Below are positions 3,540 to 64,000 of a stretch of DNA of 64,000 nt, piece after piece (positions within the stretch are counted from its first letter, which is position 1; every line of letters begins with the position of its first letter). The stretch is from IMG/VR virus record IMGVR_UViG_2740892441_000001. The stretch is one strand, 5' to 3'. Source of the DNA: a virus. Lineage: Duplodnaviria; Heunggongvirae; Uroviricota; Caudoviricetes. The notes under the pieces were generated by a model. That model made no database searches. It saw nothing but the letters and a program-made list of their open reading frames with translations, and was not told the DNA's origin. The position numbers and the translations under genes are program-made.

Positions 3540-3555
3540 GTAAGTATGTACTTAC
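3540..3555. promoter_or_regulatory. palindrome GTAAGTA-TG-TACTTAC (operator-like motif B)
   Basis: Member of dispersed ATAAGTA-N-TACTTAT palindrome family. Confidence 0.3.
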
Positions 3556-16556: not shown

Positions 16557-16617
16557 GTGTTTTTCTCTTATCGTTTAGTTACTACATTCTTACACAAATT
16601 AAGTAAGTATTTACCTA

Positions 16618-18303
16618 TTATTTAACGCGTTTGAAAACGTATACGCTGACTGTGATCCCGGTATCTTCAAACTCGTTGGTAAACGACTTCCCTTTGGCAT
16701 AAACGTAATTATCCATCGTCATCCAGCTCAGGATTGGCGCAGTGCCCGGCAATACTGCTACAAGACGCCCGCCGACTTTCAGATGCCCCAGCGCAGCCAG
16801 CGTGTGCTCTCTATGACGACCAAGCGAGTACGGCGGGTTCATAACGATTTTGTCGAACTGATAACCTGCGTTGTCCTCAGACCACTTTATGAAGTCACAG
16901 CAAATCGTGTTCGTATACCCTTTTCCACGCAGGATATCAGCGAAGAGAGGTGCGATTTCTATGCAGGTAACATCTTCCAGATCGGCGTTAATATAGGCCA
17001 GAAGATCCCCACGTCCGGCTTGAGGCTCCAGCAGCTTCTCACCAGGCTTCAATTCAGTGGCTCTGGCAACGTACTCAGCAATCAAGCGTGGGGTAGGGTA
17101 GAACTGGTGTGATTTTGTATCCGGTATTAAACCGGTAGCCACAATCGTATTTAGCGTATGGCCGATGTCATACGGGAACTGCCAGTGCTTTTTCTCCTGC
17201 ACGCCGCCAATGAAGCTCAGTGTGCGCTCAAGCTCTTCCACCTGCGACTTCTGGAGAGCTGAATCAGAGAAGTACCATACGCCTTTGTCTTTGCTCAATC
17301 GCCCGTCACGAAGCGCAGTGCGAACCGGCACGGAGATCGTCTTCTGGATTAAACCGAACTGCTTTGGTGCCCGTGTTTTTGGCGCAGTTCGGCATGGCGA
17401 GGGGATTGCAGCAGGCATACTGTAAGCCAGCACCTCATTCAACTTCCAGGCCACGTCAGGATGTATTTCAAAGTGAACGTTGCCGTTCTTGAACATCTTC
17501 ACGCGCATCAGATTTCCATCGACGTTCATCCAGTCACCGGTCTGGCAGTCGTTTGCCCTATACGCAGCTGATAGCACCTCAGCAGTGCGGTTGATGGTAA
17601 TAAATTCTTTGTGCGCGAAGAAATGAAGCAAGACACGCAGATCGTCGATGTAGTCCTCTTTGCGATAGTTCACGCTAACGCTGTCCCGCCAGAAATCAGA
17701 AATGCAGTCAGCGATTATCAGACGCTCGCTGAAACCGTTTGTCTTATTTGTCTTGTGCGCAGGACTCAGCGCCTTAAACAAGCCATACACGCGCTCAGAG
17801 AGATATTTGTGCCTGTCATTCAGCAAATTAAGCATCGTGGGTATGACCGTTTCTGCTTTGAACTCCGGTACACCAACGAACTCTTTAACCTTCATCTGGT
17901 AGCCGGTTCTGTCGGTTTTGATGACTTCCTGTTTGCCCTCTATAAACTGCTCGCGCCACTCATCTCGACGGGAAGCTGGCATGATCAGCAAAACGTTAGT
18001 CATGTCCGTGACCTTCCTCCAGTACTCGGCCCAAATATTCTGTTTCACCCATTCCAGATCGACTTTATCCAGCCAAGCTCGATTCAAACGTGAGCGTTCT
18101 TCATCTGGTCGGTGGTTCAGTTGCAGCAGGCGATTAATCATGTTGTGGCGTTCGTCGCCATAAACGAAGTCGTGAACCTGGTACATGAAAGCGATCTCTT
18201 TCTCGCACTCGGCCACAATTTCGTGGATGACGTTCATTTCCTGCCGATAGTCGATAGCAGTGTTTGAGTTGGCATCGTCGATGATGGAAAGGGCTGTATT
18301 CAT
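16618..18303 (-). CDS. N6-adenine DNA methyltransferase, gamma-class motif order, with about 400 aa N-terminal region
   Basis: C-terminal FYPTP...LLEPQAGRGDLL...VMNPPY (motifs I and IV as in TaqI-like N6A MTases); no adjacent restriction gene recognised. Confidence 0.6.
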   Translation of the reverse strand: MNTALSIIDDANSNTAIDYRQEMNVIHEIVAECEKEIAFMYQVHDFVYGDERHNMINRLLQLNHRPDEERSRLNRAWLDKVDLEWVKQNIWAEYWRKVTDMTNVLLIMPASRRDEWREQFIEGKQEVIKTDRTGYQMKVKEFVGVPEFKAETVIPTMLNLLNDRHKYLSERVYGLFKALSPAHKTNKTNGFSERLIIADCISDFWRDSVSVNYRKEDYIDDLRVLLHFFAHKEFITINRTAEVLSAAYRANDCQTGDWMNVDGNLMRVKMFKNGNVHFEIHPDVAWKLNEVLAYSMPAAIPSPCRTAPKTRAPKQFGLIQKTISVPVRTALRDGRLSKDKGVWYFSDSALQKSQVEELERTLSFIGGVQEKKHWQFPYDIGHTLNTIVATGLIPDTKSHQFYPTPRLIAEYVARATELKPGEKLLEPQAGRGDLLAYINADLEDVTCIEIAPLFADILRGKGYTNTICCDFIKWSEDNAGYQFDKIVMNPPYSLGRHREHTLAALGHLKVGGRLVAVLPGTAPILSWMTMDNYVYAKGKSFTNEFEDTGITVSVYVFKRVK

Positions 18304-18406
18304 AATTGCACCATTAAGAAGTGATTTGTTTAATGGTGCAATTATTTCAAAAATGAAAAGGTACTAAATAGAAATAAACAGGCAATCCTTCAAATAAAGG
18401 CATTGG

Positions 18407-21437: not shown

Positions 21438-21582
21438 ATGGACTCCATCCAGTGTCAGAAAGAGTTGCGGCTGGCGATTGCCAGCCGCCTTTCTCGTTCC
21501 ATCCTGGAACTGTGTCTTACCGACACATTGTCATCCTGACGCCGATAAGATACATGATTTAAAATGATAGGTAAACACTTAC

Positions 21583-23172: not shown

Positions 23173-23766
23173 CTAAGCAGCCTTCTTTGATGGTCTTTTT
23201 TTCCTGATCACATTCGCAGGATCATACCCTCCCAGACTTTTCATGACGTCCAAAGGGATCTTGCTTATAGAGTGCCCAGCGTCCTGACAGAATCCTCGAA
23301 AAACAACGAGCATACTGCCACCTGGGTTGATGTTTACTTCTACCTGACCCAGATTGACGTCAGGCTCGACAAACGCTACGCGGCCACCAGACAGAATAAT
23401 CGTCTCATTCGCACACTCTGTTGCACGCTCATACCACTTTGTATCTAGGGATTGAGGAATTAGCATCACTGTTGTAACTCCGCGAGCCTGCTCACGTATA
23501 GCCGCATCAATCCAGGGGGAGATTTTGGAGTAGGGTGGATTGAGGAAGGCAATTGTACCTGGCTGTCCCCATTCAGATTTCAAAGCATCACGCTCAACGC
23601 CTATGAAATTAGGCAGCTTTGCATTGTCCTTGTTGCAGGCAACGTCAACATCAAATGTCACTCCAAGATAACGTTGAATGGCAGAAAACAGCCAGTCAGG
23701 TGTTCTCCAGAGGTCACGAAGAGAGTTGTCGCGCTTTCGCTGTTTGATTTTTTCGGCTGCAATCAT
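23173..23766 (-). CDS. phage Dam-family N6-adenine DNA methyltransferase
   Basis: LWRTPDWLF...FDVDVA...AFLNPPYS signature of phage-type Dam MTases. Confidence 0.7.
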   Translation of the reverse strand: MIAAEKIKQRKRDNSLRDLWRTPDWLFSAIQRYLGVTFDVDVACNKDNAKLPNFIGVERDALKSEWGQPGTIAFLNPPYSKISPWIDAAIREQARGVTTVMLIPQSLDTKWYERATECANETIILSGGRVAFVEPDVNLGQVEVNINPGGSMLVVFRGFCQDAGHSISKIPLDVMKSLGGYDPANVIRKKRPSKKAA

Positions 23767-23777
23767 CTTCTTTCTCG

Positions 23778-23797
23778 ATAGGTAAGTAAATACCTAT
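23778..23797. promoter_or_regulatory. palindrome ATAGGTA-AGTAAA-TACCTAT (motif B) just upstream of Dam RBS
   Basis: 7-bp inverted repeat. Confidence 0.3.
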
Positions 23798-23949
23798 TTT
23801 TGCATTTGATTTTATGTCTGGCAATCAAATAAAACGCGCCAGAAATGCAAACGAGAAGCTCTCTGGCGCGTTTTTGTGGTGCTGGGTATGTGATTGGCTT
23901 ACCCAGCACTATAAAGCTCTCTATGGGCTTTATTTTCAGTAGGGGAACG

Positions 23950-24759
23950 TCATCCAATAGTGTACTCCGCGACAAACTTCTTAACGATCGGTGATTCTTC
24001 GTTCAATGTTAGATTTCCACCGCCTCTAACGGCAATTCCTGTCGCTGGAAATACAGCCATCATTTGCCCAGCCTGAGTTGACGCAGTGTTAAGCGGATAC
24101 GGTTTTTCTGGATTGCTCATTAAAGCAATCTTAATACTATTACTTGTAGCCTTCTTTTCTGTGAGAAGGTGTCTCATGGAAATTACCGTGTAAACACTAA
24201 TATCTGGACCTCCGCTAAACCAATTAAGAAGGTTTAATATCTTATCCTTTGCTTTGACAGGCGCGTTATCGTAAGCGTCTAAGAAAATATCTTTTTCTAA
24301 GCCCGCTTTATTGAAAAACGAATCATCTTTATCACTTAAAGTAAAACGAGGACCTCTTGCAGTACGAGCTTTTTTATTTGTATTGCTATCATTTGACTGT
24401 TGAACTTTTAATTCATCATTAACCTCAACACACTCTTCAACCTCAATAAATCCCAATTGTTCTGGCTCGTTTTCGGCAGCTTCAACACTTTCAGCGTTAA
24501 TTACGTTTATAGGCTCATGCGCTAACTCCAACTCATTTAAAGCAGAGCTGAAATCACCTGCTTTTTCTTCATTGAACAGTTCTTCGGCAACATCATCAGA
24601 ACTCATGGCTACGCCAGCATCTAGGCCGAGCAGCAGATCGTCAATATCATCAGTATTTTCAACCTGTGCAGCTTTTTTTACTGGTTCATCAAGTGATTGC
24701 AACATGGCTGTCAGCTCGTCCAGATCATCATTTGTCATTACATTTTCAACCGAACTCAT
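23950..24759 (-). CDS. hypothetical acidic protein
   Basis: 269 aa, D/E-rich N-terminal half. Confidence 0.45.
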   Translation of the reverse strand: MSSVENVMTNDDLDELTAMLQSLDEPVKKAAQVENTDDIDDLLLGLDAGVAMSSDDVAEELFNEEKAGDFSSALNELELAHEPINVINAESVEAAENEPEQLGFIEVEECVEVNDELKVQQSNDSNTNKKARTARGPRFTLSDKDDSFFNKAGLEKDIFLDAYDNAPVKAKDKILNLLNWFSGGPDISVYTVISMRHLLTEKKATSNSIKIALMSNPEKPYPLNTASTQAGQMMAVFPATGIAVRGGGNLTLNEESPIVKKFVAEYTIG

Positions 24760-24917: not shown

Positions 24918-25466
24918 TTACACAATTTCAGAGGGTAATTTAAAAAATCCGTACTTATTACGTGCCTTAAAGAAGCATTGCATCATTAAGTTTGTGTCAT
25001 ATAAGGCACTATGTGCTTTGGCATGATCGTATATAAAGCCAAGAGAGAAGGCCAACTCTTCAAGGCGGGGACGTTTACCGTCTTCTGTGGCCCACAGGGA
25101 AAATAGAGTGTCAATCAATGGGATGTCTGGAAGCGAAAAACCGTAACTTTTCAGCTCATGCCTAATAAACGGAATATCGAACGCTTCGCCGTTGTGGGCT
25201 ATCCAAATATCGGAAGAAGAGAGATACGAAGCGACAGATGAAGCGTGATCGGCTAGTAACGGCTCGGCGGCTAAATCTTCAAGACTGATGCCGTGTACCG
25301 CTTGCGCTTTCGGATCGATACTGCGACGCGGGTTGAACCGCATTGCAAAACTATCAACCATTGTCTGTGTCTCAATTTCGTACTTCACCATTGCGATTTC
25401 AATGATTTTATGGCCTGAGAGGAAATCAAGACCTGTTGATTCGATGTCCACCCCTGTAGCAATCAC
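24918..25466 (-). CDS. DnaQ-like 3-5 proofreading exonuclease (DEDDh)
   Basis: Exo motifs DIESTGL, HNGEAFDIPF, HSALYD. Confidence 0.7.
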   Translation of the reverse strand: MIATGVDIESTGLDFLSGHKIIEIAMVKYEIETQTMVDSFAMRFNPRRSIDPKAQAVHGISLEDLAAEPLLADHASSVASYLSSSDIWIAHNGEAFDIPFIRHELKSYGFSLPDIPLIDTLFSLWATEDGKRPRLEELAFSLGFIYDHAKAHSALYDTNLMMQCFFKARNKYGFFKLPSEIV

Positions 25467-26257
25467 TTTTTATCTCCTTTTACTGGTCGTTTGGACGGTG
25501 TGAAGATGGCAGCTTCAACATCCCACCCCCTCAAAATTCGCTGCGAGATAATGGTCGCAGTCAAGCCAACCTCTCTAGCCCATTCGGTAATTCGCTGAGT
25601 TCTGCCGCGACACTCGATCAGACGCTTACTATCTCGGTTGGCATACGTGTCGACGCTGGCGTTAAGCGCGCGATCTAATGGCCACCCTTTCTTGATTCGA
25701 TAGTGAAGAGTTGATGTCTGAATCCCGGCTCTTTTAGCCCATTGTGAGAGAGTCAGCTTTTCCCCCTTATGCTCCAAAATTAAGTTTGAACGCGTGTTAT
25801 TGGCCTGTTCTTCAAAAGTCGCCCATCTGCAATTTTCAGGTTCGTAGTCACCATTCACATCTTTGCGATCAAGAGACATCCCCTCTGGTCGCTCTCCCAT
25901 GTCAGCATAAAAGTTTTCAAATATTTGCCACCGCTCGCAGACTTTGATACCTCGGCCGCCATACCACTTATAGGCGTGATGGGTTGGTTTTTCACATCGT
26001 TCCCGCATACCCAGCCATATACGATAAATTGGCGTTTTACTCATACCATGAGGCTTTACGCTACGGCGATGTGCGTTGTAGACACAGCCACACGATATTG
26101 TCGCCCCGTGATTTAGCTTCCCGTAACTAACCAGGCAGGTGTTGCCGCAATCGCAGATGCAATCCCAAAGTCGCCCTTGTTTGTTTGAAATACCGGAATA
26201 TTTAAGTGCAACCAACTTTCCAAAACGTTTACCTGTTATGTCTACCGGTTGTCCCAT
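25463..26257 (-). CDS. HNH-family homing-endonuclease-like protein
   Basis: Cys cluster; DRKDVNGDYEPENCRWATFEEQANN HNH-like motif; C-terminal helix-turn-helix-like repeats. Confidence 0.55.
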   Translation of the reverse strand: MGQPVDITGKRFGKLVALKYSGISNKQGRLWDCICDCGNTCLVSYGKLNHGATISCGCVYNAHRRSVKPHGMSKTPIYRIWLGMRERCEKPTHHAYKWYGGRGIKVCERWQIFENFYADMGERPEGMSLDRKDVNGDYEPENCRWATFEEQANNTRSNLILEHKGEKLTLSQWAKRAGIQTSTLHYRIKKGWPLDRALNASVDTYANRDSKRLIECRGRTQRITEWAREVGLTATIISQRILRGWDVEAAIFTPSKRPVKGDKK

Positions 26258-26266
26258 TACTACTCC

Positions 26267-28277: not shown

Positions 28278-29381
28278 TCACACCGCCACTGGAACCTTGA
28301 TCCACGGTAGAGGGTCATAGCCAAGAATTAAAACCTCGTCCCATTTGAAATCATCCAACTCTGACCATTCATGAGGGAAAATAACGACCGGATCTGAATG
28401 CTCTGGAGCCTGTCGTTTCATTAGCTCACACACACCTTCCATGTGGTTGTTGTACAAATGCACGTCAAAGCCAAAATGCACAAATGCACCGGCCATGTGA
28501 CCCGTAATCTTCGCGAGAAAATGAGTGAGAATGCCATAGCCAGCAATATTGAATGGCATACCAACAAAAGTGTCTACGCTACGCTGTACGAGGCAGGAGT
28601 TGAGGATGCGTTTGGGGATTCCAAGTTCATCCAGTTCAGCTTCAGTAACACTGCCGTCCATCTCCAGATCGTATAGCATCTTGGTGTAGATAGACTCGTA
28701 ACCGAGGCGACTGTGTTGAAGACCAATGTCAGTTGCCATCGTTAAACGGGTTTCAAAATCCAGCTCACGACTCCACAAAGAGAAGACAAAGTGGCAAGGT
28801 GGCAGTTTCATATCCTCAAGCTCGCCTACGTTCCATGCGTTAAGCATGATGCGACGATCGGTGGGGTTCGTGCGCAGTGTATCGACAATACGCTGTAGCT
28901 GATCGATTTCACGGGACAGCACTACGCGATCTTCACTGATACCCAGGTATCCCTCGACTTTGTACCCGCGTTCACGGAAAGTATCGATCTTGCTCAGATA
29001 TTCACTATGGCTCACGATGCGGGTATCTTCCCATCGACGCCACTGCTTACCGTAAACCGGCCCCAAATCGCCATTCTCATCGGCCCATGCATCCCAAATC
29101 TTAACGCCGTTATCCTTGAGAAATTGGATGTTGCCCGTGCCTTTCAGATACCACTCAAGTTCGACAAGTAGTGGCTTAAGATTTACCGCCTTTCCAGAAA
29201 TAAGCGGCACAGTCCCACCAGTAAGCATGTAGTAAGAGGGAACATAGCAGGTGCTTAAAGTACCAGTGCCTGTGCGATCATCAGCCTGCACGCCGCTTTT
29301 AAGCACCGTCTCAATAACTTTTGCATACGATGCGTTTGTTACCTGACCGTTCGTATGCTCTCGATTCAAAAGGAGTGACAC
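28278..29381 (-). CDS. thyA: thymidylate synthase family protein (ThyA-like with two insertions)
   Basis: DRTGTGTLS, RRIMLNAWNVGEL, LPPCH catalytic motif; GTG start with GAGG RBS; 367 aa versus about 264 for E. coli ThyA. Confidence 0.7.
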   Translation of the reverse strand: MSLLLNREHTNGQVTNASYAKVIETVLKSGVQADDRTGTGTLSTCYVPSYYMLTGGTVPLISGKAVNLKPLLVELEWYLKGTGNIQFLKDNGVKIWDAWADENGDLGPVYGKQWRRWEDTRIVSHSEYLSKIDTFRERGYKVEGYLGISEDRVVLSREIDQLQRIVDTLRTNPTDRRIMLNAWNVGELEDMKLPPCHFVFSLWSRELDFETRLTMATDIGLQHSRLGYESIYTKMLYDLEMDGSVTEAELDELGIPKRILNSCLVQRSVDTFVGMPFNIAGYGILTHFLAKITGHMAGAFVHFGFDVHLYNNHMEGVCELMKRQAPEHSDPVVIFPHEWSELDDFKWDEVLILGYDPLPWIKVPVAV

Positions 29382-29396
29382 AAAAACCTCACAAAG

Positions 29397-29412
29397 ATAA
29401 GTAATTACTTAT
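29397..29412. promoter_or_regulatory. perfect palindrome ATAAGTAATTACTTAT (motif B) upstream of thyA RBS
   Basis: 16-bp palindrome. Confidence 0.3.
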
Positions 29413-38785: not shown

Positions 38786-38805
38786 ATAGGTAAGTGAATA
38801 CCTAT
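38786..38805. promoter_or_regulatory. palindrome ATAGGTA-AGTGAA-TACCTAT (motif B)
   Basis: 7-bp inverted repeat. Confidence 0.3.
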
Positions 38806-40593: not shown

Positions 40594-40692
40594 AATCGTT
40601 TTTTCAGTAGTTATTGGCCGATGCTACGATAACTCATTAGGCATACCTTAATCTGCATTTGCCTGTTTTACTTATCCCAGTTATCCACTGGA

Positions 40693-40752
40693 TAGATCCA
40701 AATAAGAGATCCCAAGTAAGATCAAATAGAAGATCCAAAGAGATCCCCGATC
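40693..40752. promoter_or_regulatory. GATC (Dam site) cluster, six sites in about 60 bp
   Basis: GATC repeated at 10-13 bp spacing; typical of Dam-controlled origins. Confidence 0.45.
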
Positions 40753-40792
40753 GCCTCTAGCCGTTGCGGTTACTGGTCTGAAAGGGTGTTGC

Positions 40793-40900
40793 CATCCACT
40801 ATGGAGAGCAAAGAAACCTCTGTAGAGAGCTGAATAACCGCTATGAAGAGTAAAACAACCACTCTGGAGAGCTGTATATATCCACTGTAGAGAGTAGAGC
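40793..40900. repeat. iteron array 1 (about five ~21 bp direct repeats, ACCACT.T.GAGAG-type)
   Basis: Direct repeats at regular ~21 bp spacing. Confidence 0.5.
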
Positions 40901-41006
40901 ACATTGTCTTTTATGGATAACTTAATGACTTAATTCTTCATTAACATACTGATATACATAGATATATTTTAAACTCTACTCTTAGTCATGATTCTTATGT
41001 CCTTAA

Positions 41007-41015
41007 ATATCCACA
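41007..41015. promoter_or_regulatory. DnaA-box-like ATATCCACA
   Basis: 8/9 match to TTATCCACA. Confidence 0.4.
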
Positions 41016-41053
41016 GAAGAGTAGAGTTACCTGTTCTTGAAATCCTCTGATTT

Positions 41054-41062
41054 TTATCCACA
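41054..41062. promoter_or_regulatory. DnaA box TTATCCACA
   Basis: 9/9 match to consensus. Confidence 0.5.
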
Positions 41063-41171
41063 GGCCCGATCCAGTAATTCAGATCACAAAGAGAACCAAA
41101 GAGACCCATAAAGACCCAATAAGATCCCCGCCCACCTCAAACCGTTGTGCCATCTGCCTTCAGACATGATC

Positions 41172-41300
41172 GATATCCACTATAGAGAGCGAATAATCCA
41201 CTATAGGGAGCAAAGCAACCACTATAGAGAGGAGAAAAACCACTATAGACGGTAGGATAACCGCTGTGATGAGTGCTACTATCCACTGTAATCAGCAAAG
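41172..41300. repeat. iteron array 2 upstream of repA (six ~21 bp direct repeats ATCCACTATAGAGAG-type)
   Basis: Regular direct repeats ending about 35 bp before the repA start. Confidence 0.6.
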
Positions 41301-41336
41301 GCCACCAAAGCCGTCGAATAACAAGAGACATTTGGA

Positions 41337-42392
41337 ATGAGCGAAAACGGCAATAAAAACATAGCGATCGTTGAAGCATTTTCAGAAACAGATAAAAAGA
41401 CAGGCGAAGTTGTTACGTTGGTTCCTAACACTAATAACACTGTTCAGCCTGTTGCTTTGATGCGTCTGGGCCTCTTCGTTCCGACGCTGAAATCGACATC
41501 CAGAGGAAGAAAGGGGCAAATGGTCTCTATGGATGCCTCTGCTGAACTCAAACAGCTGTCTCTGGCAAAAGCCGAAGGGTACGAAGACATAAGGATCTCT
41601 GGCCTTCGGCTTGATATGGATAACGACTTTAAAACGTGGGTGGGAATAATCCACGCGTTTGCCAAACACAAGGTCGTTGGCGATACTGTCACGTTGCCGT
41701 TCGTTGAGTTTGTAAGGCTGTGTGGCATTCCGACCGCCAGGTCATCAGCGAAGTTACGCAAACGCCTGGACAGTTCGCTAAGCCGTATTGCCACAAATAC
41801 CATCTCGTTCCGTAGCAAAGGCTCTGATGAGTTTTACGTAACGCATCTTGTGCAAACGGCAAAATATAGTGTCAAGCACGATACGGTCGAACTGAAAGCA
41901 GATCCCAAGATTTTCGAACTCTACCAGTTCGACAAAAAGGTTCTTCTGCAACTCCGGGCTATAAACGAACTCTCAAGAAAAGAATCCGCTCAGGCGCTTT
42001 ATACTTTTATTGAAAGTTTGCCGCCTGATCCGGCACCAATATCACTAGCCCGTTTACGCGCCAGACTTAATCTGACAAGTCGCACTATTACTCAGAATGC
42101 GACGGTAAGAAAGGCTATGGAACAGCTGCGAGAGATAGGATATCTCGATTACACGGAAGTTAAGCGCGGAAACTCGGTCTACTTCGTCATCCACTATAGG
42201 CGGCCAAAGTTACGCCAGGCACAAATATCAACAAAAATCGATAATGATGAGACGGAATATAGCCTCCCAGATGAGAATCAAGATGACATTATCGACGTTG
42301 TGCCTGACGAAAAAGAAGGCAAAATGGTCATGTTGAGTAAAGAAGAACTGGCGCTTCTCGAAGAGTTGCGCAAGGCAAAGACTCGCAAATAG
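41337..42392 (+). CDS. repA: plasmid replication initiator RepA (P1/P7-type, iteron-binding)
   Basis: [16 protein letters not shown] and [19 protein letters not shown] resemble P1 RepA as recalled; flanked by iteron arrays. Confidence 0.8.
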
Positions 42393-45558: not shown

Positions 45559-45574
45559 ATAAGTAAGTACTTAT
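45559..45574. promoter_or_regulatory. palindrome ATAAGTA-AG-TACTTAT (motif B)
   Basis: 7-bp inverted repeat. Confidence 0.3.
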
Positions 45575-45619: not shown

Positions 45620-47959
45620 TTAATCTTCTAGTTCTTCTGTTGGTGATGTCTTCTCTCGTCGGTCATCTATCGCCTGTAACGCAGCAATGATTTCAGCCAG
45701 TGGCTTCTCCCGATACATCTCGACGATCTGCGATTTGGTGTATTTCTTGTCACCAATTTCAACTCTCCCGCTGGCGTTCTTTGGCAGGTATCCTTCTTCC
45801 AGCATGTACTCGACGAGCGATTCGATAACGTCGAGGCCACGAGTAGGATCGAAGTAGAATTTCCAGGTGCATTTGCCATACGGTGGTGCAACTTTGTTTT
45901 TGATGCACTCTGCGCCTACGTCCTGACCGATCTTCTCTTTCCCATCCTTCATCACCGATGCACCGAGACGGATGCGCACAGAAGCGTAAAACTTCGGTGA
46001 ATCGCCGCCTGGAGACGTAGTAGGGTCGCCAAACATTACACCGATTTTTGTGCGAACCTGATTCAAGAAGATGATGCAGGCGTTGTATTTGCGTGCCCAC
46101 AAAGCCAGAGTAGGGAAGTTCGCACTCGTCGCACGCGCCAGTGCCGTATTGTCGTTCATGTTTAGCTGATCTTTGTCTTTGGCTGTGCCTTCAGCCATCT
46201 TTTCGAACTTCTCGGCTTTGGAGTTCGGAACCATAGACGCAAGAGAGTCAGCCACGATACAGATAGGTGCTGATTCGGGGATAAGCTCTTCATCACGAAC
46301 CAATTTAAGTATTGTGCCGATCAACTCTACAGAGTCTTCGAAGGTATCTGGCTGCTTGTATACCCACTGACCGTCATCCTCATCTGCATTCAAACCATTG
46401 GCTACAGCCAGGCCAACGTCAAAACTGTTTTCATGATCGAGGAATACCGCCAGACCATCTTGTTTTTGAGCGGAGATCATCGCTGCTGTTGCAAGGAATG
46501 TGTTGTGGCTGATAATCCCGTTAGACCAGAAAGAGTGTGTTTCCGGCATCGCTACGTCGAACGTTGGTGCTTCACCTTCCTCAATAGCCACGACTTCGTC
46601 GTAGAACAAGTTAGAGCCAATTACCGCTGCCAGTTGTGCAAACAGATGCTCGTTAAAACGATTCTTTCTGCCAATGAAGGAGACATAGATTTCTCGCAGT
46701 TTGTCTATTCCGACACGATCGCCGCGGCCAATAACGTGGTCTACCAGAGCGTAGTCTTCACGGGTGGTCTTGGTGAGCGACTCGTAGAGTGATTTCACTA
46801 AGCCGCTGATGTGCGGAACATAGCCTGAGTAAGTGCGGTCAAAACCAATGTCCCGTTTGGTTGCCACTGATAAACGTGCCGGAGATTCGAAACCAATCGT
46901 TGACAGAAAAAGGTCGTAATTAGAGCCACTGAATGACAGCCGGTAATATGTATTTTCATAACCCGCGACGTGTTTTTCAGAGATAGTTGACGTAATCCCC
47001 AGATTCAGGAGCATGAGGCGAATTTGCTGTAGCAGCAGCCCACTCGCGCTCACAACCTCAATGCAGCGACCATCATTGACGTGGCATTCCAGCTCAAAGT
47101 AGCCGCGAAGGAATGCAATTTGAGCCTCGCTATTGGCGCGACGCACACTCAACGGAACCTGCTTGCCAGCAGCTTTCTCATACTCCAGACCATATTCTTT
47201 AAAAAGCAGCGAACGCACCTCTTTGCTAAACAGCACATGGTCTTCCGAGCCGTTATGTTTTCTCGTAACTGGCATCTTGTCTGATACCAGCGAAATGAGG
47301 CGGTAGTACTCATCCTTGATGAAAGGATCTGTGTTAGAAAAATTCACTGAATTTTCAGAGGCCACGTATCCGTCAGCAATTAAATAGCCCATCAGTTTTG
47401 CGATATTGGCATCCAGGTGCTGATCGCCGAATTGATGTGTGCCAACCATTGAAGGAATCGTGTCGCCTACACTGATTTTTTCAGCATGTCGCCAGACGAC
47501 ATTACCTAAGTCGTCAACCACACGGATTGGGTGACGGAACGTAGCCTCGATATAACCGCCTGATGCCAGCTTAATACGCTTGAATTTGCGACGGTTGTTC
47601 CATGTCAGGTGTGAGGTCTTCTCTATCACGCCATTTTCATTGATGAGTCCAACGTTATGCTCTACATCGCGAGTAGTGCATGTCGCTTTGTACCCTTCAA
47701 TCTCAAACAACTCTTTCACTGTTACCATTCCACGCTCCGTCAGCAGCATGGTGTCTGCGGTAACACATTTCCCCGCACTTGGAGGACCGAATACTTCGAC
47801 GATACGACCACATGGGAAACCGCCATCGTAACGACCGGAAATCGCTTTGTTTAACGGAGGAAAGCCTGTGTCAATCCAATGAGTTACTTTCTGAATTTCG
47901 TCGTTGCTACCGATTTTCTTTTTCAGAGCAAGTGCCAGTGCGGATTTTCCTTTTGCCAT
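45620..47959 (-). CDS. recA: RecA-like recombinase interrupted by an in-frame intein
   Basis: Exteins give GPPSAGK|TFLAT (Walker A) and a RecA-like C-terminal core (IFLNQVRTKIGVMFGDPTTSPGG..KFYASVRIRL); about 357 aa without the intein. Confidence 0.8.
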   Translation of the reverse strand: MAKGKSALALALKKKIGSNDEIQKVTHWIDTGFPPLNKAISGRYDGGFPCGRIVEVFGPPSAGKCVTADTMLLTERGMVTVKELFEIEGYKATCTTRDVEHNVGLINENGVIEKTSHLTWNNRRKFKRIKLASGGYIEATFRHPIRVVDDLGNVVWRHAEKISVGDTIPSMVGTHQFGDQHLDANIAKLMGYLIADGYVASENSVNFSNTDPFIKDEYYRLISLVSDKMPVTRKHNGSEDHVLFSKEVRSLLFKEYGLEYEKAAGKQVPLSVRRANSEAQIAFLRGYFELECHVNDGRCIEVVSASGLLLQQIRLMLLNLGITSTISEKHVAGYENTYYRLSFSGSNYDLFLSTIGFESPARLSVATKRDIGFDRTYSGYVPHISGLVKSLYESLTKTTREDYALVDHVIGRGDRVGIDKLREIYVSFIGRKNRFNEHLFAQLAAVIGSNLFYDEVVAIEEGEAPTFDVAMPETHSFWSNGIISHNTFLATAAMISAQKQDGLAVFLDHENSFDVGLAVANGLNADEDDGQWVYKQPDTFEDSVELIGTILKLVRDEELIPESAPICIVADSLASMVPNSKAEKFEKMAEGTAKDKDQLNMNDNTALARATSANFPTLALWARKYNACIIFLNQVRTKIGVMFGDPTTSPGGDSPKFYASVRIRLGASVMKDGKEKIGQDVGAECIKNKVAPPYGKCTWKFYFDPTRGLDVIESLVEYMLEEGYLPKNASGRVEIGDKKYTKSQIVEMYREKPLAEIIAALQAIDDRREKTSPTEELED
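46502..47767 (-). mobile_element. intein with LAGLIDADG homing-endonuclease domain inserted in the RecA P-loop
   Basis: Begins with Cys after GPPSAGK, ends ...SHN before Thr; LAGLIDADG-like blocks LMGYLIADGYV and FLRGYFELECHV; 422 aa. Confidence 0.7.
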
Positions 47960-63978: not shown

Positions 63979-64000
63979 GATAAGTAAGTAAATACTTATC
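63979..64000. promoter_or_regulatory. palindrome GATAAGTA-AGTAAA-TACTTATC (motif B) at window edge
   Basis: 8-bp inverted repeat. Confidence 0.3.

Follow-up and report, generated by a model that had tools for sequence, protein, structure and literature searches.

Two stand-alone adenine methyltransferase genes of an SSU5-type phage-plasmid, one of them encoding a DUF4942 protein

The methyltransferase locus and its element

The window, which is the whole 64,000-nucleotide stretch of DNA that was analysed, carries two methyltransferase genes on its minus strand. Both lie within a long block of DNA-metabolism and replication genes, and the same-strand cluster around them includes nrdAB, thyX, DHFR, an exonuclease and RNase HI.

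16618-18303, minus strand: gene for the DUF4942-methyltransferase protein, 561 aa (open reading frame; stop codon at 16618-16620)
23173-23766, minus strand: gene for a phage Dam-family N6-adenine methyltransferase, 197 aa (PF05869, TIGR01712 and phrog_111; WRTP at residues 20-23, NPPY at residues 76-79)
25463-26257, minus strand: gene for a free-standing HNH homing-type endonuclease, given as context (PHROG HNH families)

The window is an SSU5-type phage-plasmid based on its DNA identity to SSU5 and Cyrano, the gene order common to both, and the presence of a plasmid replicon. Escherichia phage Cyrano is 97.4% identical to it across 9 kb, Salmonella phage SSU5 is 83% identical with the same gene order, and plasmids of ~110 kb reach ~97% identity; 710 plasmid records match the window. 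The two-gene methyltransferase locus spans 7.1 kb; of 5,426 complete E. coli genomes, 200 contain it. The small methyltransferase gene occurs in 742 plasmid records, of which 730 are non-mobilizable. SSU5 carries both genes and they are annotated there as methylases, SSU5_095 ('DNA methyltransferase') being the large one and SSU5_088 the small one. The two genes flagged in the window are conserved, previously annotated, stand-alone DNA adenine methyltransferases of a common E. coli phage-plasmid lineage.

Searches of Pfam, PHROGs, NCBIfam, PADLOC and PDB sequences matched no restriction endonuclease among the neighbours of either gene, in agreement with the first-pass annotation, which had recognized no restriction gene beside them. 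A cognate, co-conserved restriction gene, by which a type II R-M system would be identified, was also not found; the neighbours of family members differ between contexts. The HNH open reading frame was considered as a cognate nuclease and rejected, as it is a homing-endonuclease insertion absent from relatives: the window carries ~780 bp extra at 25097-26261 in comparison to Cyrano and pSTEC388_1, the 5' end of the adjoining exonuclease gene is divergent, and the HNH gene is missing from the SSU5 and Cyrano annotations. In pSTEC388_1 a 'type I restriction endonuclease subunit R' is placed ~18 kb away; no such gene (HsdR) is present in the window, where the corresponding stretch encodes an SPFH protein, an intein-containing RecA, a 5'-3' exonuclease and a gp32-like protein.

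Three sequence elements lie at or near the starts of the two genes.

18304-18343, minus strand: perfect 14-nt inverted repeat abutting the ATG of the large gene (arms at 18304-18317 and 18330-18343)
23782-23796, minus strand: near-palindromic element TAGGTAnnTACTTAC, ending 16 nt upstream of the ATG of the small methyltransferase gene
23835-23870, minus strand: terminator-like hairpin CGCGCCAGA / TCTGGCGCG, with T-runs on both sides, as read from the sequence

As RNA, the inverted repeat folds at -20.6 kcal/mol (z = -5.8; none of 200 shuffles was as stable) and would bury the likely GGUG ribosome-binding site of the large gene. The repeat is identical in Cyrano and pSTEC388_1 and only partly kept in SSU5, and the putative hairpin may serve a regulatory role. 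The TAGGTAnnTACTTAC element is over-represented, with 20 matches in the window where 0.68 are expected, and four of its six perfect-palindrome copies sit 23-54 nt upstream of minus-strand gene starts. The terminator-like hairpin separates the small methyltransferase gene from the 269-aa gene upstream; having a loop of 18 nt, it was not reported by the hairpin scan.

The two enzymes

The 197-aa protein matches PF05869 'Dam' (E 2.5e-38; 131.8 bits, cut-off 28.1) and TIGR01712 'phage N-6-adenine-methyltransferase' (113.9 bits, cut-off 97.05), both above their cut-offs, which bears out its initial description as a separate phage Dam-family enzyme. It shares its small size, its NPPY motif and its above-cut-off scores with the Dam enzymes of phages T1, VT-2/933W and HP1. 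Like the phage Dam family, it comes from a temperate phage of enterobacteria and has no restriction partner. No solved structure for the PF05869/TIGR01712 Dam family was found among PDB entries. By analogy with its family, GATC or a related sequence is its probable target; GATC specificity of the lineage is assumed from the Dam-family name and the VT-2 and HP1 papers, and identity to the Stx-phage, T1-type and Vibrio-phage enzymes is 28-41%. Between E. coli-type and Klebsiella-type elements the small enzyme is 84% identical, making it much better conserved than the large enzyme, which retains 62-65% identity across lineages. Relaxed specificity was also considered, prompted by a paper that reports small phage m6A enzymes of non-specific action, with a homologue in phiP27; it was set aside, as the phiP27 protein, at 352 aa, is not the same enzyme as the 197-aa one.

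The 561-aa protein is matched end to end by phrog_6263 'DNA methyltransferase' (E 4e-299) and is 99% identical to a cluster named 'DUF4942 domain-containing protein' (1,384 member sequences). Four parts can be distinguished along its gene.

16621-17118, minus strand: C-terminal catalytic domain, residues 396-561 (motifs X, I, II, III, IV (NPPY) and V, in gamma order)
17119-17373, minus strand: small alpha/beta sub-domain, residues 311-395 (secondary structure of the models; the most variable part)
17374-17943, minus strand: DUF4942 core, residues 121-310 (conserved like the catalytic domain)
17944-18303, minus strand: helical N-terminal region, residues 1-120 (from models; poorly conserved, identity 0.20 to distant relatives)

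The gamma-order motifs are confined to the last ~165 residues, where the first-pass annotation had placed them: motif X is HQFYPTP at residues 399-405, motif I is LEPQAGRGD at 425-433, motif IV is NPPY at 489-492, and VAVLP follows at 515-519. Across the family (23 and 42 members compared), motifs X, I and IV show no or almost no variation, and 132 of 135 full-length family representatives have [NS]PP[FYW] near the C-terminus; 69 residues follow NPPY in the 561-aa protein, in comparison to a family median of 71 (range 25-88). The C-terminal target-recognition domain that is usual for the gamma class is absent from the 561-aa protein, and its accessory module is N-terminal instead. In M.TaqI, M.BseCI and the C. 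difficile orphan CamA the large target-recognition domain is C-terminal, whereas here the extra mass is the N-terminal DUF4942 portion; since M.BseCI has 544 residues and CamA 547, the initial view of the 561-aa protein as unusually large does not hold.

The predicted structure of the 561-aa protein is confident (pLDDT 82.6), and the C-terminal 150-165 residues of the model superpose on m6A methyltransferase cores and have the class I Rossmann fold. The best PDB match is M.TaqI, with an E-value of 0.16 for the single sequence, a weak similarity, and 3.9e-7 for the family profile; an M.TaqI-like activity is predicted. PADLOC type II methyltransferase models match at E 2e-10. When C-domains of the family are compared with Pfam, N6_Mtase is matched by 19 of 42, Eco57I by 4 of 42 and the generic MTS family, weakly, by 33 of 42.

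The ~400 N-terminal residues had been described as unassigned, which is no longer so for residues 140-295, as these match Pfam DUF4942 (PF13708; E 1.6e-20, 74 bits against a cut-off of 25); the precomputed DUF4942 domain is present in all close homologues. Mean pairwise identity is 0.50 in the DUF4942 core, 0.48 in the catalytic domain and 0.30 in residues 311-395, and phrog_9133 matches residues 328-560, showing that the 311-395 sub-domain travels with the catalytic domain. The first-pass annotation had supposed that this N-terminal part probably includes target recognition; to judge from these alignments, the DUF4942 core, being so conserved, does not resemble the recognition domains of most methyltransferase families, which are variable, and target recognition there is putative. 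Neither a relative of the N-terminal DUF4942 module nor a recognizable DNA-recognition domain was found among solved structures. As the large enzyme has a TaqI-like core and lacks a C-terminal recognition domain, it would have to engage DNA through the DUF4942 module together with residues 311-395.

Probable self-methylation and other possible roles

The best explanation, which is considered probable, is that both genes encode orphan DNA N6-adenine methyltransferases performing lytic-phase self-methylation for restriction evasion. The methyltransferase genes would be expressed with the DNA-metabolism block during lytic replication or establishment of the element, and both enzymes would methylate the element's own DNA; progeny genomes would then enter their next host with protection against m6A-sensitive restriction systems in place. 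Site composition shows that restriction pressure on the element is real, as 40% of 6-bp palindromes have an observed/expected ratio below 0.5, in comparison to 0.4% of non-palindromic 6-mers (p ~9e-13). Such a strong loss of palindromic sites points to an element that relies mainly on site avoidance, so that methylation would add only partial protection. Enterobacterial hosts have a Dam of their own, and a small enzyme specific for GATC would duplicate it and confer no obvious protection in Dam-positive hosts, which argues against a protective role if that is indeed its site. Self-protection is nevertheless plausible.

A precedent exists in the orphan plasmid enzymes M.EcoGIX and M.BceJIII, which are anti-restriction m6A methyltransferases that are silent during ordinary growth and display single-strand and PolI-linked behaviour; M.EcoGIX has been shown to protect its element upon entry into a new host (PMC7736820). 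These enzymes are beta-class with a DPPY motif (PMC7736820), whereas the large protein has gamma order and NPPY, and homology to M.EcoGIX, which the name 'YdiA' on a pHCM2 protein had brought into consideration, is ruled out by this difference. A resemblance lies in the carriers, which are mobile elements: the family of the large protein occurs on >2,000 sequenced plasmids and, with 1,342 conjugative records, is abundant on conjugative plasmids too.

The Dam-type enzymes of P1 and T4, which are orphan adenine methyltransferases of temperate or lytic enterobacterial phages, act in packaging, in replication or in protection. P1, too, is a phage-plasmid; its origin is rich in GATC, and both this plasmid origin and its packaging site need Dam methylation. 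The Dam enzymes of P1 and T4 are alpha-class and belong to different protein families from the enzymes of the SSU5 group. A comparable regulatory role, in which the Dam-family enzyme, possibly together with the large enzyme, would regulate the element's own biology through origin GATC sites, packaging sites or late promoters, is rather unlikely; the layout of the replicon speaks for it.

40681-42392, plus strand: plasmid replicon, given as context (DnaA boxes at 40681-40689 and 41054-41062; Rep3-family initiator gene at 41337-42392)

The replicon is P1-oriR-like, with DnaA boxes, a Rep3 initiator, six GATC sites within 58 bp (40695-40752) and 21-bp iterons at ~40794-40900 and 41175-41300. The GATC-rich origin to which the first-pass annotation appealed therefore exists, at 40681-41300 beside the Rep3 initiator gene, but GATC is not enriched window-wide (268 sites observed and 246-328 expected). 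Regulation would also suit the small enzyme in that its family has studied members called Dam (phages VT-2 and HP1) and in that its conservation, higher than that of the large enzyme, fits a fixed target such as GATC. It is opposed by the presence of Dam in the hosts, by the divergence of the small enzyme from its Stx-phage and T1-type counterparts, and by the position of the genes, which lie 17-22 kb from the origin within a lytic-type DNA-metabolism block; no link between the origin and either enzyme emerged, and the proposal of replication control through the origin was not sustained. The regulatory and protective readings are not mutually exclusive and can both hold.

That the large protein methylates RNA (m6A or m2G in rRNA or tRNA) or protein, with the DUF4942 module recognizing that substrate, is improbable. 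The closest structural match of the model is METTL5, with many KsgA, Erm and Trm matches behind it, and weak NCBIfam matches to Erm and KsgA are also seen; the MTS family that most C-domains weakly match is dominated by RNA and protein methyltransferases, RNA enzymes stand closely behind M.TaqI in the profile search (1.3e-5 to 2.5e-5), and the large protein has no recognizable DNA-recognition domain. Weighing against an RNA or protein substrate are the nearly invariant F/Y-Y-P-T-P motif X, which at ~20 residues ahead of motif I is the N6_Mtase/Eco57I/TaqI pattern, the first rank of M.TaqI among PDB matches by both sequence and profile, and the PADLOC and PHROG matches, which are all to DNA methyltransferase families. 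The gene also lies among DNA-replication genes, and elsewhere it adjoins other DNA methyltransferases. DNA, methylated at N6 of adenine, is favoured as the substrate by these sequence comparisons, and an RNA substrate, which the first-pass annotation had set against its own reading, appears disfavoured.

It is very improbable that either methyltransferase is paired, in a cryptic R-M or other defence system, with a nuclease encoded by one of its neighbours (e.g., the 234-, 223-, 189- and 269-aa open reading frames). Sequence comparison often fails to reveal type II restriction enzymes, and several neighbours have no function assigned by Pfam, PHROGs or NCBIfam, but no neighbour accompanies the large gene throughout SSU5-type elements, prophages, IncHI2 plasmids and pND6-1, and neither PADLOC nor the solved nucleases gave a match to any of them. 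The HNH gene was inserted recently, and an element losing restriction sites under strong selection behaves as a target of restriction, not as a carrier.

DUF4942 methyltransferases across mobile elements

The DUF4942-methyltransferase family, which comprises hundreds of sequence clusters, has a fixed architecture throughout its 608 representatives, and its hosts are phage-plasmids, IncHI2-type conjugative plasmids and prophages. A second DNA methyltransferase is also present at ~28% of sampled family loci; at 65 usable loci from different species, the motif-positive flanking open reading frames include six PF05869, four PF01555 and three PF00145 proteins, as well as three Eco57I-like and two MmeI-type methyltransferases. 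On IncHI2 plasmids the large-family gene lies 2 kb from a Dam-family gene, and in prophage early regions distant relatives of the large protein adjoin other orphan DNA methyltransferases. Split versions of the family were considered and set aside, as the short DUF4942 proteins mostly end at contig edges; the one true stand-alone DUF4942 protein has no methyltransferase gene beside it.

In the literature searched on DUF4942, the SSU5 and pHCM2 methylases and the IncHI2 orphan methyltransferases, no functional work and no methylation, expression or phenotype data were found; this widespread family, whose carriers include IncHI2-type resistance plasmids, lacks experimental study there. It may be speculated, with low confidence, that the DUF4942 module represents a novel type of accessory domain for DNA methyltransferases, either replacing the classical recognition domain and giving a fixed or very relaxed target, or tethering the core to the replication or entry machinery. 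If this is true, the family would be a large anti-restriction methyltransferase class common to phage-plasmids, IncHI2-type conjugative plasmids and prophages, and one often deployed together with another orphan methyltransferase.

The finding in the window itself matters little, as orphan phage methyltransferases are routine and both genes were already annotated. The wider interest lies in the DUF4942 family, as knowledge of its target and of the role of its N-terminal portion would shed light on the passage of these elements across restriction barriers between Enterobacterales, and its characterization would fill a gap in methylome annotation.

Two methyltransferase genes on a phage-plasmid

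Both open reading frames reported in the first-pass annotation lie where it placed them, and the shorter is unambiguously a member of the phage Dam family (Pfam PF05869, 131.8 bits against a cut-off of 28.1; NCBIfam TIGR01712, 113.9 bits against a cut-off of 97).

Methyltransferase genes of the window
16618-18303, minus strand: large gene, 561 aa
23173-23766, minus strand: small gene, 197 aa

Around both genes, 9 kb share 97.4% identity with Escherichia phage Cyrano and 83% with Salmonella phage SSU5, which keep the genes in the same order, each already annotated as a methylase. Of the 710 plasmid records that match the region, almost all are classed as non-mobilizable and measure about 105-120 kb. 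In 200 of 5,426 complete E. coli genomes the two-gene locus is present at close to its full length, nearly invariably on a plasmid record; based on these matches, the window is a common SSU5-type phage-plasmid. The pairing of methyltransferases is an ordinary feature, already annotated in public records. The small gene is found only in SSU5-type records (742 plasmid records, 730 non-mobilizable), and across lineages its product is more conserved than the large protein (84% compared to 62-65%).

Both genes belong to a same-strand DNA-metabolism block with nrdAB, thyX, DHFR, 3'-5' exonuclease, RNase HI and SbcCD-like genes. A near-palindromic element, TAGGTAnnTACTTAC, with the core TA[AG]GTA-N2-TAC[CT]TA, has 20 matches in the window where 0.68 are expected. 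Five of its six perfect copies are intergenic, and four of these precede the start of a minus-strand gene by 23-54 nt, among them the copies ahead of the small gene and of a 367-aa ORF (28278-29381); the element could serve the block as an operator, promoter element or RNA hairpin.

Sites of TAGGTAnnTACTTAC in the window
3541-3554
16603-16617
21568-21582
23782-23796
29398-29411
38790-38804
45560-45573
63985-63998

Directly upstream of the small gene (23950-24759, minus strand) is a 269-aa protein with an extremely acidic N-terminal half (35 D+E and 4 K+R in the first 125 residues). It matched only PHROGs lacking a function label and has no relative in the PDB; a role as DNA mimic or anti-restriction factor is conceivable. 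A perfect 14-nt inverted repeat (18304-18343) abuts the start codon of the large gene, and its predicted RNA fold (-20.6 kcal/mol, z = -5.8) would bury a probable GGUG ribosome-binding site; the repeat is preserved in the E. coli lineage, and SSU5 retains just part of it. Just past the large gene, the near-identical phage-plasmid pSTEC388_1 carries host-type metG (methionine--tRNA ligase) and apbC (L004 16083-19374), a position held in Cyrano by Ea22/Eae-like genes.

Catalytic domain and substrate of the large protein

The proposed gamma-class order of motifs, X then I then IV, is confirmed in the large protein. Its N-terminus had been called unassigned, which is not wholly the case, as residues 140-295 match Pfam DUF4942, and phrog_6263 ('DNA methyltransferase') covers the protein end to end. 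Nor is it unusually large; 561 aa is ordinary for such an enzyme, the chains of M.BseCI and CamA having 544 and 547 residues.

Motifs of the large protein
399-405: motif X, HQFYPTP
425-433: motif I, LEPQAGRGD
447-450: CIEI
469-471: CDF
489-492: motif IV, NPPY
515-519: VAVLP

An RNA or protein substrate is improbable, although the fold itself is shared: in a confident AlphaFold model built on 23 homologues (mean pLDDT 82.6), the last 150-165 residues superpose on both DNA- and RNA-acting m6A methyltransferase cores, with KsgA, Erm and type I M subunits among the structural matches. Among solved proteins, M.TaqI gives the best sequence match to the large protein alone (E 0.16) and to a profile built from 42 family C-domains (E 3.9e-7), RNA enzymes following at 1.3e-5 to 2.5e-5. 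PADLOC returned type II methyltransferase models (E 2e-10) and the mad2 model (1.2e-15), and among the 42 C-domains Pfam recognized N6_Mtase in 19, Eco57I in 4 and, weakly, the generic MTS in 33. A nearly invariant (F/Y)YPTP about 20 residues ahead of motif I is the N6_Mtase/TaqI pattern. DNA adenine methylation is favoured by these comparisons as the likely activity.

Orphan status and possible roles

Searches of Pfam, PHROGs, NCBIfam, PADLOC and PDB sequences gave no restriction-endonuclease match for any neighbour of either gene, and no co-conserved partner was found, the neighbours being wholly different among SSU5-type elements, prophages, IncHI2 plasmids and a Pseudomonas plasmid. A cryptic restriction partner is accordingly very improbable, and we are nearly certain that both genes are orphans. 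An HNH ORF (25463-26257) with one PHROG match to 'restriction endonuclease' was rejected; the gene is missing in Cyrano, pSTEC388_1 and SSU5, and because its site (25097-26261) holds about 780 bp more than in Cyrano and pSTEC388_1 and adjoins a 3'-5' exonuclease gene with a diverged 5' part, it has the hallmarks of a free-standing homing endonuclease. A 'type I R subunit' gene about 18 kb off in a related plasmid has no counterpart here, the matching stretch encoding an SPFH protein, an intein-containing RecA, a 5'-3' exonuclease and a gp32-like protein. The RecA homologue (45620-47959, minus strand; 779 aa) is split by an intein that contains a LAGLIDADG homing-endonuclease domain (Pfam RecA, residues 484-703; Intein_splicing, 73-486; LAGLIDADG_3, 279-356).

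Other methyltransferases do accompany homologues of the large protein. On an IncHI2A plasmid, one is separated from a Dam-family gene by 2 kb and from repHI2 by 7 kb, and chromosomal relatives (Variovorax; an enterobacterium) adjoin PF01555 and PF00145 methyltransferase genes in prophage early regions. Among 65 usable loci from different species, with motif-positive flanking ORFs verified by Pfam, roughly 28% have a second DNA methyltransferase within 10 kb (6 PF05869, 4 PF01555, 3 PF00145, 3 Eco57I-like and 2 MmeI-type). The association is recurrent, not obligatory, and its enrichment only suggestive. In Pantoea septica and Enterobacter sp. (L070 6288-8969 and L076 4177-6861), a complete MmeI-type restriction-modification enzyme is encoded on the opposite strand, a few kb from the homologue.

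A regulatory or replication role, not exclusive of protection, is a less likely reading. The GATC-rich origin suggested previously exists insofar as a plasmid-type replicon with six GATC sites is present; however, GATC is not enriched window-wide (268 sites, compared with an expectation of 246 by base composition and 328 by a Markov model) and the genes are 17-22 kb away. The layout (40681-42392) recalls P1 oriR, whose function requires Dam methylation; the hosts possess their own Dam. Only by this analogy is a replication role of the small enzyme possible.

Replicon features of the window
40681-40689 and 41054-41062: DnaA boxes
40695-40752: six GATC sites, spaced 7-13 bp
about 40794-40900 and 41175-41300: two sets of 21-bp iterons
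41337-42392: Rep3-family initiator gene

A protective role is judged the more probable. As we infer their timing, role and specificities, the two orphan adenine methyltransferases would be expressed with the replication block and would methylate the element's own DNA, leaving progeny pre-protected on arrival in new hosts. The plasmid enzymes M.EcoGIX and M.BceJIII provide precedent for mobile-element orphan m6A enzymes protecting DNA on entry, although they are beta-class DPPY proteins unrelated to those of the window (PMC7736820); in E. coli ST131 methylomes, methyltransferases carried by prophages and plasmids are frequently silent at the transcriptional level and, once expressed, promiscuous (PMC4659465). 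Literature searches covering DUF4942, the methylases of SSU5 or pHCM2, and orphan methyltransferases of IncHI2 yielded no functional study.

The window strongly avoids 6-bp palindromes, 40% of which have observed/expected ratios below 0.5 compared to 0.4% of non-palindromic 6-mers (Mann-Whitney p about 9e-13); those centred on ATAT, TATA or CG (GATATC, CATATG, GTATAC, TTCGAA, TCGCGA) are not avoided. This depletion indicates that the element is under type II restriction selection, which it evades largely by site loss; methylation can only be, at most, a complementary layer. The original observation was correct and its interpretation partly supported.

Depleted palindromes (observed/expected)
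AAGCTT: 0/15.5
AGCGCT: 0/13.3
GAGCTC: 0/12.2
GCATGC: 0/11.5
GGCGCC: 0/11.9
GAATTC: 1/10.9

The large-protein family and its N-terminal module

With the module as query against 1.84 billion cluster representatives, 608 proteins were recovered at E <= 1e-3 and 414 at <= 1e-10. Among the best 150 of the 608, 135 have at least 480 aa, and 132 of these 135 contain [NS]PP[FYW], at a median of 71 residues from the C-terminus; judging from this length and position, the architecture is fixed and there is never space for a C-terminal recognition domain. In the plasmid collection, 2,251 records match the large protein, 1,342 of them typed conjugative; about 600 (SSU5-type) have at least 60% identity and about 1,650 fall below it, full-length at roughly 30% identity among the matches listed.

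Mean pairwise identity along the large protein
1-120: N-terminal helices, 0.34
121-310: DUF4942 core, 0.50
311-395: variable sub-domain, 0.30
396-561: catalytic domain, 0.48

Conservation of the DUF4942 core matches that of the active-site domain, whereas recognition domains vary in most families of methyltransferases. Residues 311-395 would be the better candidate for setting specificity, if any part does so; this stretch also accompanies the catalytic domain in phrog_9133, a larger phage protein family. Wider interest lies only in the large enzyme, which belongs to a big family that is uncharacterised and for whose conserved N-terminal module no fold relative is known.
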